A DNA stretch of 34,559 nucleotides from IMG/VR virus record IMGVR_UViG_2693429748_000009; one strand, written 5' to 3'. Below the pieces are notes generated by a model. That model was not told the origin of the DNA. It saw only the letters and a list, made by a program, of their open reading frames with translations, and did not search any database. The position numbers and the translations under genes are program-made. Below, in pieces: positions 19,906 to 30,411 of the stretch; within the stretch, counting starts at the first letter, position 1, and every line of letters begins with the position of its first letter. The DNA comes from a virus. Taxonomy: Duplodnaviria > Heunggongvirae > Uroviricota > Caudoviricetes.

Positions 19906-20951
19906 TGAGCAGAAAAAATAAAAAAGTGCGCATGAGTTCACGCATTGATCTCGCTGATGCGCTCAGGAAAGAATCGTCGCTCAGTGCATTCACATTTGAT
20001 GGTCCTTACCGCCTGACCGGGCATGACCTGCTGGACAATATGTACTGTGCTGATAACGGGCGGTGGTATGAAACCCCGGTGGACTGGTACGGTCTGGCAA
20101 GAGCTGCCCGGCAAACGTCCTGGCATCAGTCTGCGCTTTACTTTAAGCGCAATGTATTGCTCGGCTGCTATATTCCGCACCCGCTGCTTTCCCGGCAGGA
20201 TTTCTCGGCGCTGGCGCTGGACTGGTTTGTGTTCGGTAACGCATTCCTTGAGCTTCGGAGCAATATGCTCGGCGAACCGCTTAAATTACGGCACGCCCTG
20301 GCGAAATACATGCGACGCGGAAGCGATCTTGAATCATGGTGGTATGTGCAGGATGGCAAGGATGCGTTTCAGTTTCGTCCTGGCAAAGTGTGCCACCTGA
20401 TGAATCCGGATATTAACCAGGAAATCTACGGCATGCCGGAATATCTTGGCGCATTACTCTCGGCCAGCCTTTCTCATTCGGCGGACATGTTCAGAAAACT
20501 GTACTACGACAACGGATCCCACGCCGGGTGCATCATCTACATCGGTGCAGCGCAGGTAAACCGCGAAAGCATGGACTCCCTGAAAGAAACGCTACAGGGG
20601 GCACGTGGTGGTGGTGCGTTTAAAAACGTGCTCATTCATGCGCCCAACGGGGGCAAAGAGGGGGTGCAAATTTTGCCGTTCCAGCAGATCACCGCAAAGG
20701 ATGAGTTCATGAATGTTAAGGCGGCATCCCGTGATGATGTGCTGGCTGCGCACCGCGTTCCGCCGCAACTGATGGGGGCGATGCCGGGCGAAAAAAGTGC
20801 GTTTGGTGATGTGGAGAAGGCCGCGCGGGTTTACGCAATTAACGAGCTGATGCCCGTCATGGAGGCCATGAAGCACATCAATGACTGGCTTGGCGAAGAG
20901 GTGATCCGCTTTAACCCTTACGCACTGTTAGACACCCAGCCCACATCCTGA
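19905..20951 (+). CDS. Portal protein (P2 gpQ-like)
   Basis: 348 aa, start overlaps the gpP stop. Confidence 0.85.
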   Translation: MSRKNKKVRMSSRIDLADALRKESSLSAFTFDGPYRLTGHDLLDNMYCADNGRWYETPVDWYGLARAARQTSWHQSALYFKRNVLLGCYIPHPLLSRQDFSALALDWFVFGNAFLELRSNMLGEPLKLRHALAKYMRRGSDLESWWYVQDGKDAFQFRPGKVCHLMNPDINQEIYGMPEYLGALLSASLSHSADMFRKLYYDNGSHAGCIIYIGAAQVNRESMDSLKETLQGARGGGAFKNVLIHAPNGGKEGVQILPFQQITAKDEFMNVKAASRDDVLAAHRVPPQLMGAMPGEKSAFGDVEKAARVYAINELMPVMEAMKHINDWLGEEVIRFNPYALLDTQPTS

Positions 20952-20978
20952 CGCGCTTCGCTTGTCTGCTGCTTCGCC

Positions 20979-21001
20979 GGGGCATAAAAAATTTATGCCC
21001 C
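20979..21001. terminator. Strong hairpin after the portal gene, possible terminator at the cos-proximal end
   Basis: GGGGCATAAA-AAA-TTTATGCCCC, no clean downstream T-run. Confidence 0.4.
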
Positions 21002-21442
21002 GACTCTCCAGCTCCTGTATCAGTCAGATAATTTCACGACGCTTTCCTGCTGATTGCCATCATCGACAGTCAGACTCTTACGCAATCCCACCTCGTTGAC
21101 TGCATATTCTCGCCGTCTCAGTGCGATTTTGACGGCCTTACCTTTCACCCCATCAAATCAAAAGCCCTCACGTCTTTTTCACGCTCAGCGTGAGAAATAC
21201 AGCCATTCTGTTGTATCTCTGCGACATCGTTCAGGGAATGCTATTTACCCCCTGAAACGCGGGCTGTTCCCCCGTCACCTGCGCGCAGAAAAAACGCGTT
21301 TTTTTGTGCATGCACGGATCCTTGACGGATCCAGCCGCCACGCGGGCCGGAAGGGCAAAAAGTCGTTCAAAAAAATTGTGCAAATTTGTGCACTATTGTG
21401 CATTTATAAAATCAACTAAAAAACACCTAGTGTGACTTACCT

Positions 21443-21628
21443 CTACCACTCGATCGGCACGTAGTCATTAAGTTCCGGAGACCAATTGCACTTTTCACAT
21501 CTGTGTTTTCCATTCTGGCAGATACATAAACGATAACGGCCACAATGCGGGCACCCATTTTCACCATTATCATAATCACCGAGCGACCATTCCTGCATAA
21601 GCAGCTCTTCTTCATCATCATTTAGCAT
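21443..21628 (-). CDS. Small Cys-rich (zinc-ribbon-like) acidic protein, unknown function
   Basis: 61 aa with CPHCGRYRLCICQNGKHRCEKC; strong SD (AGGGGGA) 5 nt upstream. Confidence 0.55.
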   Translation of the reverse strand: MLNDDEEELLMQEWSLGDYDNGENGCPHCGRYRLCICQNGKHRCEKCNWSPELNDYVPIEW

Positions 21629-21642
21629 TAATCCCCCTTGAG

Positions 21643-21882
21643 CTATTTACTCTTCTCGGCCCTCAAAATCATACGAGAACCATCATCCAGCTCCCAATTA
21701 ATTTCACCGCCTTCTGCCATGACTAGATGCCAAACGAGTTGAGCGGCCTCGTTGGTTACATCGCGACCGCGATCATTTCCTACGCGGCGTTTTGTTCCGT
21801 CTCCTAAGTCACGCATTTTTGCCAATACGATGGTTTTTGATAGCGGTGAAAAACCAAGCTGTAGTCGTGCTGAATTACTCAC
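21643..21882 (-). CDS. Hypothetical protein (79 aa, GTG start overlapping the upstream stop)
   Basis: ORF with GTGA start/stop overlap with 21879..22403. Confidence 0.45.
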   Translation of the reverse strand: MSNSARLQLGFSPLSKTIVLAKMRDLGDGTKRRVGNDRGRDVTNEAAQLVWHLVMAEGGEINWELDDGSRMILRAEKSK

Positions 21883-22403
21883 TGGCTGCCCCCTTTGTAC
21901 TGTGTTAACTCTTCCTGCTCCTGCATCATGCGATTGACCTGAACGCGTGTGCGTCGAACGGCAAAATTAAATTGAAACATGAGCCGGAACATTTCTGATG
22001 CTTCCGTGTGAGCATCACGGATAGGTGACAGGCGGTACAGTTCTGCCTCCGTAGCTTGTTGAATCAATGACAGATCAAATTGAAGTGCGGGTCTGGTACA
22101 TTTTGCACATCTGGCAGCAAGCTCCGGTATTAGTCTCTTAACGAAGGTGTTTTGCACCGCTTTGTTGATTTGTGTCTGCATCCAAATCGCAAATTTCAGC
22201 GAACGCATAAGTTTGATAGCCTCGGGCAGCGGCAGATAGATCATGCTGGTAGATTTGGGTGGTTGGTGAACCATCTTCACGGATACGCGATTTCGCAGCG
22301 TTCGGAAAATCGTGTTCCCAACAACAGCTTCTACGGATACAGGACAGGGAGCCAGACCAGCCCGCAGTGCTTCTTTCATTAGCATGTATTCGTATTTTTT
22401 CAT
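21879..22403 (-). CDS. Hypothetical protein (174 aa), unknown function
   Basis: GAGGA Shine-Dalgarno 7 nt upstream of the ATG; same strand as parR. Confidence 0.55.
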   Translation of the reverse strand: MKKYEYMLMKEALRAGLAPCPVSVEAVVGNTIFRTLRNRVSVKMVHQPPKSTSMIYLPLPEAIKLMRSLKFAIWMQTQINKAVQNTFVKRLIPELAARCAKCTRPALQFDLSLIQQATEAELYRLSPIRDAHTEASEMFRLMFQFNFAVRRTRVQVNRMMQEQEELTQYKGGSQ

Positions 22404-22463
22404 CGTGTTTTCCTCGTGCGGGGCGACAGTGCACCCCGATAAAATTAAAAGCCGTCAAATTCG

Positions 22464-22775
22464 TCATTCAGGAAATAATGCCCGGATATTCCCTGCTATC
22501 TGACTGGTTATCTGTGCGGTTGGTACTGGCTGTGGCACGGGGCGTTCTGTCCTGGTTTGTGTCACCGATAACGCCTCATCGTCAGCCCATGCAGCCAGTC
22601 GGTAAGCCTCTGCTGGATTCATTTTCAGAAGTGCCAGCCCGGCCAGAAAAGCCACGCGTTGGCCGCTTTTGCGGGCTTCTGGTGTAAGGCTGCCCAGCCA
22701 GGCGCATGCTTCGCTTTCGTTCTTGACGGCCGCAGGCTTCAGATAGAAACTTATCCGTCTGGTTGGTGTCGTCAT
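22464..22775 (-). CDS. parR: ParR-like centromere-binding adaptor (ribbon-helix-helix)
   Basis: MTTPTRRISFYLKP...AFLAGLALL...NIRALFPE resembles R1 ParR (recalled). AAGGAG SD lies inside the parM 3' end. Confidence 0.6.
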   Translation of the reverse strand: MTTPTRRISFYLKPAAVKNESEACAWLGSLTPEARKSGQRVAFLAGLALLKMNPAEAYRLAAWADDEALSVTQTRTERPVPQPVPTAQITSQIAGNIRALFPE

Positions 22776-22779
22776 TGGT

Positions 22780-23739
22780 TTACTCCTTGTCCATTGCGTA
22801 CAGCCCATTAACCAGAGCAAACTGTGGCACCCCGTCCGCGATGAAAGTCGCATTAACTCCGCAGGCTTCGCGGATAGCGGGTGCCACAATCTCCGCCCCT
22901 CCACCGACAACCATCACCCGCCCGTAACCCGAAAAACCCGCCAGCGCGCGGATCACGCGTTGTTTCAGTGTTTCTTCCTTTTCACGAATAACCGCCATCA
23001 GGCTGGCGTAATGCGCGTCATTGTGGATGTGCTGGCGCAGCCAGGCTTCATCATGGCGATGTTCGATAATGGTATTGGCGATGTGGTGACTGGTGCGCAT
23101 ACCGTTAGTGGCCATCACCGACAGTACGGCATCGGCCATCAGAGAAACGCCTACGTGTGGATCGCAAAACACCTGGCTGATACCTGCCAGTTGCCCCTGA
23201 ACCTTTGCCACATCCAGCGTGGTTCCGCCCAAATCCACAATCAGCAGGGATTCAAACGGACTCATGTCAGCCAGTGCCTTAAAGCCAGCCGGAATGGATT
23301 CAGGCATAACCCGCACGTTACGGATAGTGAATGCTTCGCCGTTCTGGTACTCCACCGGGCGCATAACGTTCGCTTTTTTGCGGTTGATGTTGGCCATGTC
23401 CGGCTGTGCGTTTGTGTCGAAATACTCGCTCAGTGGCAGGGTGACAACCACATCCACCTCCTGTGGCGTGATGCCTGATTTGACCAGCGCGTGATGAATG
23501 GCAATGACATTTACATCGCTGTACTGGTATTGCGTGTCGGTTGTCTGGACAAAGCGATCGCTGACCGGATCAAAACCATAGCGCACGCCATCAAGCATGT
23601 AGTTCGCGGGCTGCATGCCACCGAACGGCGCAGACCATTCCGACTTGAAGCTGTTCGGGCTGATGGCGTTGCGGCGTTCGCCGTTCTCAGTCCATGCCAG
23701 CTTGATGTTGGTGGAGCCGTCGTCGATACAAATTTTCAT
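22780..23739 (-). CDS. parM: ParM/StbA-family actin-like segregation ATPase
   Basis: 319 aa: MKICIDDGSTNIKLAW..., YSDVNVIAIHHAL, MPESIPAG, DLGGTTLD, GGGAEIV. Close to R1 ParM as recalled. Confidence 0.8.
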   Translation of the reverse strand: MKICIDDGSTNIKLAWTENGERRNAISPNSFKSEWSAPFGGMQPANYMLDGVRYGFDPVSDRFVQTTDTQYQYSDVNVIAIHHALVKSGITPQEVDVVVTLPLSEYFDTNAQPDMANINRKKANVMRPVEYQNGEAFTIRNVRVMPESIPAGFKALADMSPFESLLIVDLGGTTLDVAKVQGQLAGISQVFCDPHVGVSLMADAVLSVMATNGMRTSHHIANTIIEHRHDEAWLRQHIHNDAHYASLMAVIREKEETLKQRVIRALAGFSGYGRVMVVGGGAEIVAPAIREACGVNATFIADGVPQFALVNGLYAMDKE

Positions 23740-23767
23740 GTCGCTTTTCCTTATGTTGATTAATTAA

Positions 23768-23882
23768 TCGTTTACGGGATTCTGAAATCCCGTTTTTGCC
23801 TGTTTTGTGCGCGCTTCATATATCGCTGCGCGTTTTTTGCTCATTTACGGGATTCGTGAGTCCCGTTTCTGTCTGTTTTTTG
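23768..23882. repeat. Two roughly 40-bp direct repeats, each with internal dyad symmetry, upstream of parM (candidate parC centromere/operator)
   Basis: TTTACGGGATTCTGAAATCCCGTTTTTGCCTGTTTTG at 23768..23807 and TTTACGGGATTCGTGAGTCCCGTTTCTGTCTGTTTTTTG at 23842..23882. The second overlaps the last codons of gene A. Confidence 0.45.
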
Positions 23883-26638
23883 TTTCCACTGGTCAGGCCA
23901 CCCCGCAGCAGGTCTGCTTTGCGGCGGGCGCGTTCAGTGGTTTCACTGATTCTCTGTGCGTGCTCTGCGTCGCGGATGGCGCGCAGCATGTCAGAAAGCA
24001 CGGTAACGGGTGTTTTCATGGTGTTCTGGTCCTGCTGAAGTGTGGATGCCAGGCGTGCGGCGGCTTCAGGGTCTGATGCCCCCAGCTGTGTCAGATAGCT
24101 GGCGACCGGGTTATGGCGGATCTCCGTGCTGCTTACGCCATGATTACGGCTCAGGCGCTGCCAGAGCTGCGTGATTCGGCTGTCCGGGCGGGTATCCGGT
24201 TTGCGTACAATTTCAAATCCCTGCGGTGCAATGATGCTGCCGTCAACGTACAGACTGCCGCCCCGTAACAGGTGCTGCATCTGTTGTTCACCGATATGCA
24301 GGCCGAGAGATTCAGCAGACTCCCGCCATTCTTTAGCGAGTAATTCGTGGTTATCAGGCAAAGGCCGCTGCTGTTTGCGGCTCTGTGTCCAGCTCTGCAT
24401 TTCATCACTGCTGTTTTTTGCCTGTTTGTCACGAAGCGAACGCATCAGCGCCCGGCGTTCGTGCCGTTTCAGTGAGCGCATCCATTCATCCACATCAACG
24501 CCGTCAGGGAGCTGCGGCCACGGTGCTGGCCGTTCTTCCGGCTGTTCTGTCCCGTTGTTGTCCGTTTCCTGTACACGGGGACAGTTATTGCCACGAGTCC
24601 AAGGGGCGGCAGGGCCGCCCTGAAGGTCAAAACCATTTTCGCGGGCGCTGTCTTCCGCTTCCGGTTTGCGTCTTACCAGCTTCCAGTTATCCGGATGCGT
24701 GCACACACGGGAGGATTCCCCGATGAGTGGTGACCAGATCCCGTAAATCTGTACGCTCTGTTCGCCGTAATCGTTCAGCTCATCGGCGAGGTCGTAGGCG
24801 GTGCGAATCAGGTAGTCTTTGCGTGGAACAAGTACGCCGCCCTGTTTCTCTATGTAGGTGGCAAAACATCCGGCATCAGCGGCGGCAAGAACCGCATCCA
24901 TTGCGTCATCCTTCAGCCGTTGCGGGCCTTCCGGGTTGCGTGCCATCTGGCTGGCAAGGCGGCGCAGTTCACGCCATACCTGGCGGGAGGGGATGCCAAA
25001 GAACTGGAACTGGCGGACCCGGTGAAGGCGCGCCCAGCCGATGGCGCGTTCCACGCTCTCGGCCATTGATTTTCCGGTTTCGTGGTCAACGCGTGGCTTG
25101 CCCGTTTTCGGGTCGATGCCATCCACGGCGCGGCTGTCCAGGTTTTTCCCGATGTAGGTGGCGATGTAGCTGGTTGGCGTGCCTTTTGAGCCGTCTACAT
25201 ACTCCGCCTTAAAGCGCGGAGTTATGTCATCGCCCAGCTCGTGACGATCTTCCTGAATGGCAATATCGCGGGTGTGGGACACAATGGTGTCGATTTCTTC
25301 CGGATGAGCAAAGACCATCATATGCCAGTGCACGGTGCCGTCATGGTGAGGCTCCGCCGTGCGGATGCCATACCAGCGCAGGCCGTCGCGGTTCAGTTTT
25401 TTGCGGACCGTCGCAAAAAACGTGTTAACCAGGTAATCGCTGGAGTCGCGCATTGTGGCCCCGTTCCATTTGGGATTCGGATGACCGTTCTCCGTTGTGG
25501 CGTGGTATTTTGACGGGCAGGTGACAGTCAGAAACACCGCTTTGTCGCCACGGGCTTCGGCCAGAAGTTCCAGCCCCTTCATGGTGGCCATCATTTCTGC
25601 CTTACGGTGAACCGGGTTACTTACTCCCGCGTAATACACCGTCTCGAGATCAATCGTGAACCCGTCTTCATTTTCCAGCATGAAACTTTTCAGGAAATCG
25701 CGTGTTTTCTCGCGCTGTGCGCGAAACTCGCTTAACGCGTCCTGGCTCAGATAGGGCGATGTTTTTCTGGAAACCAGACAGGCGGCGCGAAGTTGTTCTT
25801 CTCTCCACTCGCAACGTAACAGCCACAGTTTGCGTTTCCACCATTCCGCACAGGTCAGGCGAAGGATTGCGCCCGGCAGCAGTTCTGTGTCCGGTTCGTG
25901 CCTCCGGTCTTTGTCTGTTGTCAGTGCGTCATAATGCGGAGGCATGGCGTGTAAGTGTAACGCCATGCGGGCCAGCATCTGATACGCCTTCAGCGTTACA
26001 TCCATGGTCAGCTCGCCATCAGTCGCGCCAAAACCATCGCAGAGTTTTTCGAAGGTGCTGCTGAACATCGCCGCCGTCATGGTGGCCAGCGTCTGTATCT
26101 GGTGTTTGTTGAGTTGCGGCAGGTAAAGCAAATCGTCCAGGCGTTCACGTCCGGCAAGGGAGCGATAACCCGGTGTCAGCCAGTGTCCGTCAGTGCGATC
26201 CAGACGTTCGAATATTTTGCGCAGGGTTCCGCGTGCATAGCGTTCCGCCTGCCAGCTCTTTTTGCCTTTCCGGCGATCGGCTTCCTGTTTTTTGCGCAGG
26301 AAGGAGAGGTGGCGAATAAGCGGATCGCGCAGATAGGACGGCAGCAGGCGCAGCGAGGCCATGGCTTCATCCACCGCGCCGCGTGCCTGTTTTCTGGCGT
26401 CTCCTGCCAGTGTGATGGTTTTGTCCTGTTTTTCCTGTGCGTCCAGGCTTTTATTAATCAGGTTGCCCAGTGGCGTGGCGGAGAACGCCGCATCAGCCAT
26501 TTCCTGGCGGCGCTCGTTCTCTGCCCGGTGGGCATCCAGCCAGGAGGAAAGCGCGGATTCAGGAGCGGGGATCCCCGTTCCTTCACGCCCCACTGCGTGG
26601 CGCGGTTGTTGCCAGTCCCTGATGTACTCTGCCGTCAT
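23816..26638 (-). CDS. Replication initiator endonuclease (P2 gpA-like, rolling-circle type)
   Basis: 940 aa with HWHMMVF metal-binding motif and the paired-tyrosine motif YIATYIGK (Y-x3-Y). The N-terminal extent is uncertain. Confidence 0.75.
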   Translation of the reverse strand: MTAEYIRDWQQPRHAVGREGTGIPAPESALSSWLDAHRAENERRQEMADAAFSATPLGNLINKSLDAQEKQDKTITLAGDARKQARGAVDEAMASLRLLPSYLRDPLIRHLSFLRKKQEADRRKGKKSWQAERYARGTLRKIFERLDRTDGHWLTPGYRSLAGRERLDDLLYLPQLNKHQIQTLATMTAAMFSSTFEKLCDGFGATDGELTMDVTLKAYQMLARMALHLHAMPPHYDALTTDKDRRHEPDTELLPGAILRLTCAEWWKRKLWLLRCEWREEQLRAACLVSRKTSPYLSQDALSEFRAQREKTRDFLKSFMLENEDGFTIDLETVYYAGVSNPVHRKAEMMATMKGLELLAEARGDKAVFLTVTCPSKYHATTENGHPNPKWNGATMRDSSDYLVNTFFATVRKKLNRDGLRWYGIRTAEPHHDGTVHWHMMVFAHPEEIDTIVSHTRDIAIQEDRHELGDDITPRFKAEYVDGSKGTPTSYIATYIGKNLDSRAVDGIDPKTGKPRVDHETGKSMAESVERAIGWARLHRVRQFQFFGIPSRQVWRELRRLASQMARNPEGPQRLKDDAMDAVLAAADAGCFATYIEKQGGVLVPRKDYLIRTAYDLADELNDYGEQSVQIYGIWSPLIGESSRVCTHPDNWKLVRRKPEAEDSARENGFDLQGGPAAPWTRGNNCPRVQETDNNGTEQPEERPAPWPQLPDGVDVDEWMRSLKRHERRALMRSLRDKQAKNSSDEMQSWTQSRKQQRPLPDNHELLAKEWRESAESLGLHIGEQQMQHLLRGGSLYVDGSIIAPQGFEIVRKPDTRPDSRITQLWQRLSRNHGVSSTEIRHNPVASYLTQLGASDPEAAARLASTLQQDQNTMKTPVTVLSDMLRAIRDAEHAQRISETTERARRKADLLRGGLTSGNKKQTETGLTNPVNEQKTRSDI

Positions 26639-29433: not shown

Positions 29434-30411
29434 ATGAGCATAAAATCAATTCCGGGAGGGTATCTTCTTGACATGCGTCCTGAGGGGCGTAAAGGCAAAC
29501 GCATTCGCAAAAAATTTAAAACGAAATCGGATGCAGTTTTATATGAGCGGTGGGTGCTGGCGCAACAGCATAACAATGAGTGGAAAGGAAACTCCATTGA
29601 TCGCCGTCCGCTGTCAGTGCTTATTGACTTGTGGTGGAAATACCACGGCCAGCTAATGAAGTCAGGGCATAACACGCGCCTTAAATTGCTGCGCTTGAGT
29701 GAGGCAATGGATGACCCGTGCGTGCATAAACTTAATACAACGATGCTCACCGAGCTACGTGTGTCCAGGATAGAGCAGGGGATACAGCCCAGCACCATAA
29801 ATCGAGAGATTGGGGCGTTAAGCGCGATGTTTACCGCACTCATCTCATCCGGCCATTTTCTTAACGATAACCCCGTTCAAGGCCTTAAAGGAATGAAGGT
29901 TAACGAGCGTGAAATGGGATATCTGAGTAAGTCTGAATGTGTTCAGTTGCTGGATGCACTGGCTGAAAATCCCGATGAACGGCTGGCCGTCGAAATCCTT
30001 CTGTCGACCGGGGCGCGATGGGGCGAGGTAGCGGCACTGGAGCAGCGCCGTGTTCTTCATTGTCGAATCACTTTTTCAAAAACGAAGAACAGCAAAAACC
30101 GTACCGTTCCTATTTCTGAAAGCCTGTTTGAAAAGATCAAAAAACGGGGCGGGAAACTGGTGTTTCCGACGCTGGATTATTCATTGGTTCGCGATGTCAT
30201 CAAAACGGTCGCACCTGATGTTCCTGACGGCCAGGCTGTTCATGCGCTGCGCCACACCTTCGCCAGTCATTTCATGATGAACGGCGGCAATATTCTGACG
30301 CTCCAGAAAATTCTGGGGCACGCAAAGATTCAGACAACGATGATTTATGCCCATCTTGCGCCGGATTACTTGCAGGATGCGGTGAGGTTTAATCCCTTGG
30401 GAGGAATGTAA
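29434..30411 (+). CDS. int: Tyrosine integrase (P2 Int family)
   Basis: LSTGARWGEVAAL ... HALRHTFASHFMMNGGNILTLQKILGH ... MIYAHLAPDYL. Start MSIKSIPGGY preferred. Confidence 0.85.
   Translation: MSIKSIPGGYLLDMRPEGRKGKRIRKKFKTKSDAVLYERWVLAQQHNNEWKGNSIDRRPLSVLIDLWWKYHGQLMKSGHNTRLKLLRLSEAMDDPCVHKLNTTMLTELRVSRIEQGIQPSTINREIGALSAMFTALISSGHFLNDNPVQGLKGMKVNEREMGYLSKSECVQLLDALAENPDERLAVEILLSTGARWGEVAALEQRRVLHCRITFSKTKNSKNRTVPISESLFEKIKKRGGKLVFPTLDYSLVRDVIKTVAPDVPDGQAVHALRHTFASHFMMNGGNILTLQKILGHAKIQTTMIYAHLAPDYLQDAVRFNPLGGM

Follow-up and report, generated by a model that had tools for sequence, protein, structure and literature searches.

A candidate bipartite parC-like site upstream of the parM-parR genes of P88-like prophages

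The window, by which we mean the entire 34,559-nucleotide stretch of DNA analyzed here, is a P88-like prophage (genus Xuanwuvirus, P2 family), and the 2 kb around the region considered below are 97-99% identical to phage P88 and its relatives, as well as to prophages of 1,437 among 5,426 complete E. coli genomes. On the minus strand the gene order is gene A, parM, parR and a variable cargo; the portal and terminase genes come next, on the opposite strand, and all credible genes within 21427-26638 lie on the minus strand (Table 1). The region of interest, 23768-23882, contains two repeats at the junction of gene A and parM. As the stop codon of gene A falls between them, the distal repeat lies inside gene A, and the proximal repeat lies in the 76-bp gap before the parM ATG.

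Complete E. coli genomes were searched with a probe spanning the junction of gene A, the repeats and parM. This junction is carried by 1,372-1,437 of the 5,426 genomes (about a quarter), in up to four copies per genome, and strains of O157:H7, O26, O145 and O111 are among the matches listed. The record NZ_CP148288.1 (E. coli Z1323PEC0009), which was deposited as a plasmid, is a circular, 34,461-bp, complete P88-like phage genome in which gene A, the repeats, parM and parR are all present. The assembly could have captured an episomal or induced circular form, and the record is in this sense compatible with, and no proof of, an episome. Public records already carry annotations for the ParM and ParR proteins of P88; in those that we examined the cis site is unannotated, and no publication on the site or on the function of the P88 parMR cassette was found in the literature searched.

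Table 1. Features of the gene A-parM-parR region of the window, GGG-N10-CCC cores in three lineages, and putative centromeres of related loci.
Feature	Position	Strand	Remarks
Gene A, replication endonuclease, 940 aa	23816-26638	-	Pfam Phage_GPA, E 7e-131; stop codon 23816-23818
Distal 42-nt unit	23841-23882	-	A-tract sub-repeats and dyad; overlaps last ~20 codons of gene A
Distal 20-bp dyad	23847-23866		ACGGGATT-CGTG-AGTCCCGT; one T:G position on plus strand; GGG-N10-CCC core at -125 from parM ATG
Spacer between units, 31 bp	23810-23840	-	includes gene A stop codon
Proximal 42-nt unit	23768-23809	-	in gene A-parM intergenic gap
Proximal 20-bp dyad	23774-23793		ACGGGATT-CTGA-AATCCCGT; perfect 8+4+8; GGG-N10-CCC core at -52 from parM ATG
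Conserved ATTAAT(T/C)AA box	23757-23769	-	between proximal dyad and Shine-Dalgarno AAGGA (23748-23752)
parM, actin-like segregation ATPase	22780-23739	-	StbA_N 2.7e-82, ParM_N 1.3e-68; ATG at 23739
parR, 103 aa, presumed repeat-binding protein	22464-22775	-	Plasmid_stab_B (PF10784), E 5e-23
GGG-N10-CCC, P88 group (E. coli, E. albertii, Salmonella)	-125 and -52 from parM ATG		spacing 73 bp
GGG-N10-CCC, Plesiomonas	-131 and -59 from parM ATG		spacing 72 bp
GGG-N10-CCC, Hafnia	-128 and -55 from parM ATG		spacing 73 bp
Putative Serratia/Enterobacter centromere, locus L091	4870-4990		
Putative Serratia/Enterobacter centromere, locus L094	3870-3990		
Putative Serratia/Enterobacter centromere, locus L115	1210-1330		

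A repeat search recovered a single repeat family, comprising two 42-nt direct repeats that are 81% identical and start 73 bp apart. Each unit contains one 20-bp palindrome and two A-tract sub-repeats of about 10 bp; the palindromes have the general form ACGGGATT-N4-AATCCCGT, and a T-rich tract follows each of them on the plus strand. The preliminary description, which had reported paired dyad-containing direct repeats with T-rich tracts upstream of parM, overlapping the end of gene A, is thereby borne out, although the distance between the copies measures 73 bp rather than about 74 bp. In most related prophages the second, distal dyad is perfect (ACGGGATT-TGTG-AATCCCGT), and the proximal dyad ends 34 bp from the parM ATG. 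With up to three mismatches allowed, the dyad pattern matches only these two sites in the 34.6-kb window, compared to 0.18 expected from shuffled sequences, and two or more matches arose in 2 of 100 shuffles. No Rfam family was found at the repeat locus, and a search of plasmids for DNA distantly similar to the repeat region returned nothing but P88-like DNA.

Comparison of the partial matches to the junction probe indicates which neighbor the repeats accompany. In two E. coli prophages with a P88-type gene A but no parMR (L120 and L121), similarity to the window is lost about 28-46 bp ahead of the distal repeat, and no dyad was found in either of them. A third locus (L119, E. coli 720632) has a different gene A and an unrelated 155-aa ORF ahead of parMR, and it becomes similar to the window precisely from the A-tract of the distal repeat onwards. 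Likewise, in Hafnia and Enterobacter prophages other genes are found between gene A and parM, and the repeat-bearing region still adjoins parM. The element thus forms one module with parM-parR, being absent where parMR is absent (L120, L121) and present where the upstream gene is another one (L119, L087 and L094). Judging from these sequence junctions, the repeats are the 5' end of the parMR cassette and are inherited with parMR, not with gene A. The overlap with gene A is incidental, as any upstream ORF reads into the distal repeat. The 155-aa ORF of L119 (tail at 2500-2565) and P88 gpA end in the same 18 residues, KQTETGLTNPVNEQKTR. A fusion of P88 gene A with the ORF upstream of parM in L119 and Hafnia was considered and rejected, since the shared part is confined to these 18 residues encoded by the distal repeat. 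The gpA tail is frameshifted, truncated or extended in about 7 of 80 related loci, which suggests that it is dispensable as a protein segment; it looks like a by-product of the DNA element. The region downstream of gene A in P2-like phages is a known variable hotspot, and the cargo that replaces parMR in L120 (2900-3150) and L121 (2900-3120), e.g. an AAA ATPase with an S8 peptidase, or hypothetical genes on the opposite strand, fits this pattern.

ParM relatives of 54-63% identity are also present in P2-like prophages of Hafnia, Plesiomonas, Serratia and Enterobacter, with those of Plesiomonas and Hafnia being 62-63% identical to the window ParM. Read in the orientation of parM, a GGG-N10-CCC core occurs exactly twice upstream of the gene in three lineages, namely the P88 group, Plesiomonas and Hafnia, and in none of the upstream regions of 18 other parM genes examined. 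An alignment of the four upstream regions from P88, Salmonella, Plesiomonas and Hafnia is invariant mainly in the two cores, the ATTAAT box and the ATG. Conservation of the half-sites, of a spacing of seven helical turns and of the position relative to parM are hallmarks of a protein-binding site rather than an RNA structure. Scanning IMG/VR for the two-dyad layout gave at least 119 matches, all of them just upstream of a P88-type parM; no new lineage appeared among the matches listed, which are P88-type loci only. Both copies of the repeat are kept in all 85 P88-type loci examined. The ParMR loci of Serratia and Enterobacter phages have a different putative centromere (Table 1), in which an inverted repeat of about 19 nt (GGGAACGAxAxAGAAAAAT) flanks a core of 26-30 bp, and a GCCGTTTAAACGGC palindrome and ATTTCATGACC direct repeats are situated closer to parM.

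The presumed repeat-binding protein clearly belongs to the StbB/ParR family of R1, and it varies strongly in sequence. The 85 P88-type loci encode 51 distinct ParR sequences, which belong to two types (A and B) with about 54% identity and a middle region that is almost free to vary; recombination and diversifying selection are possibilities for the cause of this hypervariability. ParM is 98-100% identical across P88-type loci. The invariant parts of P88-type ParR are an N-terminal TRRISFYLKP and a C-terminal NIxxLFPE (NIRALFPE in the window parR). The ParR proteins of R1 and pB171 are ribbon-helix-helix proteins that read DNA with their N-terminal strand, and by homology to them we take TRRISFYL to be the DNA-reading ribbon and the NIxxLFPE tail to be the ParM-binding peptide. 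Across the lineages compared, the N-terminal motif varies in step with the kind of repeat that precedes parM: TRRISFYL in the P88 group and TRR[IV]SFYL in Plesiomonas and Hafnia go with GGG-N10-CCC, whereas NRKISFYL in Serratia and Enterobacter, NRKCSFYI in IncL/M and IncFIA plasmids and RRTIAFKL in R1-like plasmids each go with repeats of their own. No association of ParR types A and B with dyad variants was found within the P88 group, as would follow from the invariance of the N-terminal stretch. An AlphaFold2 model of the ParR monomer, built from 14 sequences, is of low confidence (mean pLDDT 56.6) and contains 17 disordered N-terminal residues, two helices, a linker and a C-terminal helix. 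This topology is compatible with, without demonstrating, a ribbon-helix-helix, and at this pLDDT the fold is assigned by Pfam homology instead of from a structure; searching the PDB with the ParR sequence gave no match at E<=1. The closest plasmid ParMs are about 52% identical to the window ParM, and R1-type ParM about 47%.

Polymorphism within the P88 group was studied in a covariation sample of 54 distinct sequences from 79 IMG/VR loci, together with 119 further loci. Nucleotide diversity is 0.18 in the loops, 0.063 in the spacer, 0.061 at the third codon positions of gene A, 0.059 in the dyad arms, 0.038 in the A-tract flanks and 0.032 in the GGG/CCC cores. Hence, the dyad arms are near the neutral level, and only the cores and the A-tracts lie lower. 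No double compensatory changes were found in the dyads of the group, and one of the variants suits pairing on the plus strand (U:G) while another suits pairing on the minus strand. Given variants that suit either strand, near-neutral arms and the lack of double compensatory changes, this sample does not allow an RNA hairpin to be told apart from a palindromic site for a protein.

With respect to expression, a scan of 20800-24600 for sigma-70-like sites with at least 9 of 12 matches returned only one, at 21697, and none in or around the repeats; manual inspection of -35/-10 candidates between and around them likewise yielded nothing convincing. The ATTAAT box may be a weak -10 element that falls below the threshold of the promoter scan. 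No minus-strand terminator was detected between gene A and parM. With neither a promoter of its own nor such a terminator detectable, transcription of parMR is probably a read-through from gene A, as part of the P2-type early operon. If so, ParMR would act after infection or induction on excised, circular, replicating phage DNA, and not in the repressed lysogen. The alternative suggestion of the preliminary description, an operator controlling the cargo operon, loses ground on two counts: no sigma-70-like promoter is detectable here, and the element belongs specifically to the parMR cassette rather than to a wider cargo operon.

A property that competes with a protein-binding site is the propensity of the dyads to fold. 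On the plus strand they fold at -10.4 and -10.2 kcal/mol (z -2.55 and -2.41), and both units score as terminator-like, with an 8-bp stem that includes 4 GC pairs, a loop of 4 and a T-rich tail; indeed, they head the list of such sites in the 3.8 kb scanned (20800-24600), in keeping with the earlier remark that they resemble plus-strand terminators among minus-strand genes. They might be tandem Rho-independent terminators directed against antisense transcription on the plus strand, which would stop transcripts arriving from the cargo or late-gene side before gene A, as a primary or a second function. In some relatives the DUF3800 cargo gene points towards parR-parM, and the window variant G23860 still pairs, as U:G, on the plus strand only. 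We nevertheless regard this as unlikely. A GC-rich stem-loop followed by a U-tract is present at both sites, but neither lies at the 3' end of a same-strand transcription unit, the approximately 2.8 kb upstream being devoid of any plus-strand gene or promoter-like site. Plesiomonas and Hafnia keep the GGG/CCC cores, the spacing and the position but not the hairpin and tail: for three of their four elements, folding is no better than for shuffled sequences (z -0.1 to -0.6), and the antisense-strand T-tail is absent from all four. Among E. coli, Plesiomonas and Hafnia, only the E. coli lineage has dyads whose inner part is self-complementary. Moreover, the apparent T-tail is the A-tract of the parM strand, which is shared with the Serratia and Enterobacter loci as GCAAAAACGGGAAC and recurs there without an adjacent hairpin. 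The absence of the element from P88-type prophages without parMR argues that it does not serve gene A, and the common variant G23776A (12 of 55 distinct sequences) creates an A:C mismatch on the plus strand, with no compensatory double change seen. The terminator likeness is real only in the E. coli lineage and is probably secondary; it may possibly reflect a second or alternative function, and most of the small weight we give to the terminator explanation stands for such a possible secondary role.

Folding of the sense strand raises a different prospect, in which minus-strand stem-loops at the gene A/parM junction would act as barriers to 3' exonucleases or as processing sites, and would thereby determine how stable, or how well translated, the gene A part of the early transcript is relative to the parMR part. 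Both dyads also form stems when the sense RNA is folded (-10.7 and -9.0 kcal/mol, z -3.6 and -3.2), the proximal stem-loop ends 34 nt before the ATG, and a read-through mRNA would include both stem-loops as the minus strand has no terminator tail. However, the structure is not kept in Plesiomonas or Hafnia, no compensatory changes are seen among about 200 P88-type copies, and both the 72-73 bp spacing and the link to the N-terminal motif of ParR are left unexplained, making this quite improbable. Somewhat less probable again is that the repeats serve no function and are what remains of a local duplication, or of the recombination event by which the cassette was inserted. Such a relic would accommodate the copy number of only two, the position of the distal copy at the module junction and the near-neutral polymorphism of the dyad arms; against it, the two-element layout, the spacing and the distance to the ATG persist across lineages with almost fully diverged flanks, and none of the P88-type loci examined has lost either copy. 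Finally, the P2 ori sits inside gene A (nick site at record position 29892, 427 nt before the end of the gene), and hairpins located at the end of the gene would form once single strands are displaced, which could make the dyads the gpA nick site or a single-strand initiation hairpin for lagging-strand synthesis. This has been largely refuted and retains hardly any probability, given that the homolog of the P2 nick site lies about 700 bp from the repeats and that the dyads are missing from prophages with a P88-type gene A and no parMR. The nick-site similarity (GCGCCTCG/GAGTCCTGTCAA), which led us to reject 23768-23882 as the nick site, maps to about 24581-24625 on the minus strand, inside gene A, where GCGGCCCTGCCGCCCCTTGGACTCGTGGCAATAACTGT is homologous to the P2 nick site GCGGCATCGCCGCGCCTCG/GAGTCCTGTCAATAACTGT; on the strength of this similarity that segment is likely to be the ori of the prophage.

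Taken together, the linkage to parMR, the conservation of core and spacing, and the tracking of repeat type by the ParR motif favor parC-like repeats over plus-strand terminators, as the preliminary description had preferred. We consider it likely that the 115 bp at 23768-23882 are a bipartite, ParR-binding, parC-like cis site of a phage-borne type II ParMRC cassette, and possibly also the operator of parMR. In the mechanism that we infer, including ParR binding and its stoichiometry, the centromere function and the time of action, the site would comprise two units of about four helical turns, each offering the conserved contacts CGGGA and TCCCG (i.e. GGG-N10-CCC) and phased A-tracts. The 73-bp spacing corresponds to seven helical turns and would place both units on one face of the helix. 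By homology to R1 and pB171, ParR would bind each unit as multiple dimers, with the N-terminal strand TRRISFYL reading the DNA, and the resulting complex would present the conserved C-terminal tail NIRALFPE to ParM filaments, which would then move the DNA bearing the site.

ParMRC is a textbook plasmid-segregation machine, and to our knowledge the cis site is directly upstream of parM-parR in every characterized locus of this type. The window region shares this location, immediately upstream of the parM-parR pair, and likewise has two repeat blocks flanking a core, the two 42-nt units being 73 bp apart and the spacing being kept at 72-73 bp in three lineages. However, there is no five-fold direct array in 23768-23882, whereas the plasmid parCs compared do show direct iteron arrays. 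Plasmid parC further contains the par promoter, which is repressed by ParR; as no promoter reaches the scan threshold here, the autoregulatory-operator half of this definition is unsupported. The parC of the staphylococcal plasmid pSK41 has four contiguous direct 20-bp repeats, each of which is bound by a dimer-of-dimers of a ParR unrelated in sequence. The 20-bp dyads of the window would suit such a binding mode, although they are only two in number and 73 bp apart.

In plasmid R1, parC measures 159 bp and has two sets of five direct 11-bp iterons flanking a 39-bp core with the par promoter (PMC2241845). The window site resembles it in being bipartite, with two repeat blocks around a short core directly upstream of parM-parR, and in being rich in A-tracts, as expected for curved DNA (an R1-like example is L006, an IncFIA/FII plasmid); the cognate proteins also match, with ParR in PF10784 and ParM in StbA_N/ParM_N in both. 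It differs in that the region is 115 bp long and comprises two 42-nt units, each with its own 20-bp palindrome, on either side of a 31-bp core that has no recognizable promoter, the distal unit being located inside a coding region; the ParR N-terminal motif is TRRISFYL instead of RRTIAFKL, and the ParMs share about 47% identity. The comparison with parC iterons proposed in the preliminary description therefore holds for the bipartite layout and fails for the iteron array (two dyads against ten 11-bp iterons), and this difference in architecture counts against the parC-like interpretation, as does the fact that the dyad arms are no better conserved in the P88 group than the third codon positions of gene A.

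Two systems from integrating elements provide further parallels. The srpC centromere of SXT/R391 is small, with mixed direct and inverted repeats including four 13-bp repeats, and srpC-srpMR of this integrating element is thought to act on the transient circular form (PMC4489591). Both it and the P88 cassette are ParM-type partition cassettes in normally chromosome-integrated elements, but SrpR has no detectable homology to ParR and its host is a conjugative element rather than a phage; moreover, SrpR binding and plasmid stabilization were shown experimentally, whereas the P88 site is a candidate predicted from sequence. The alpS-AlpA-AlpC system of the Corynebacterium glutamicum prophage CGP3 is switched on early once excision has occurred, and without it the phage DNA is not replicated efficiently (PMC4446434). 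As a prophage-encoded actin-like filament with a DNA adaptor that binds repeats upstream of the operon, it offers what appears to be the best functional analogy for a ParMRC in an integrating phage, despite the adaptor gene coming first, the 24 short TTAAnnG repeats and the Gram-positive host, and despite AlpC and AlpA not being orthologs of ParM and ParR.

Combining these observations, a more specific scenario can be put forward tentatively, which we view as possible and, on balance, doubtful. P88-type phages might possess a promoter-less ParMRC driven by the early lytic operon, whose minimal, two-dyad centromere would allow the filaments to position or segregate phage circles that replicate after excision, or would maintain an unintegrated phage transiently as a plasmid, with the dyads doubling as antisense terminators. 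If true, this would be a case of a phage using a plasmid partition machine with a centromere architecture undescribed for the R1 family. The parC-like interpretation by itself would add to the R1-type ParR family a centromere layout that is compact, palindromic and made of two units. As an element this would be of an ordinary kind; what is unusual is its layout and its host, a phage that integrates. The site itself is of less interest than the question of why an integrating phage this common should retain a machine for plasmid partition, and locating the cis site gives a concrete handle on what ParMR does for the phage.

Three other features were observed elsewhere in the window on the plus strand. 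A hairpin with a 10-bp stem, GGGGCATAAA-AAA-TTTATGCCCC, is present without a T-tail at 20979-21001, past the stop of the portal gene. At 21283-21306, adjoining the presumed cos region, a weak CGCG stem is followed by T7. The segment 8333-8536 matches the Rfam family IS009 (RF02111) with 121 bits, relative to a gathering score of 117.
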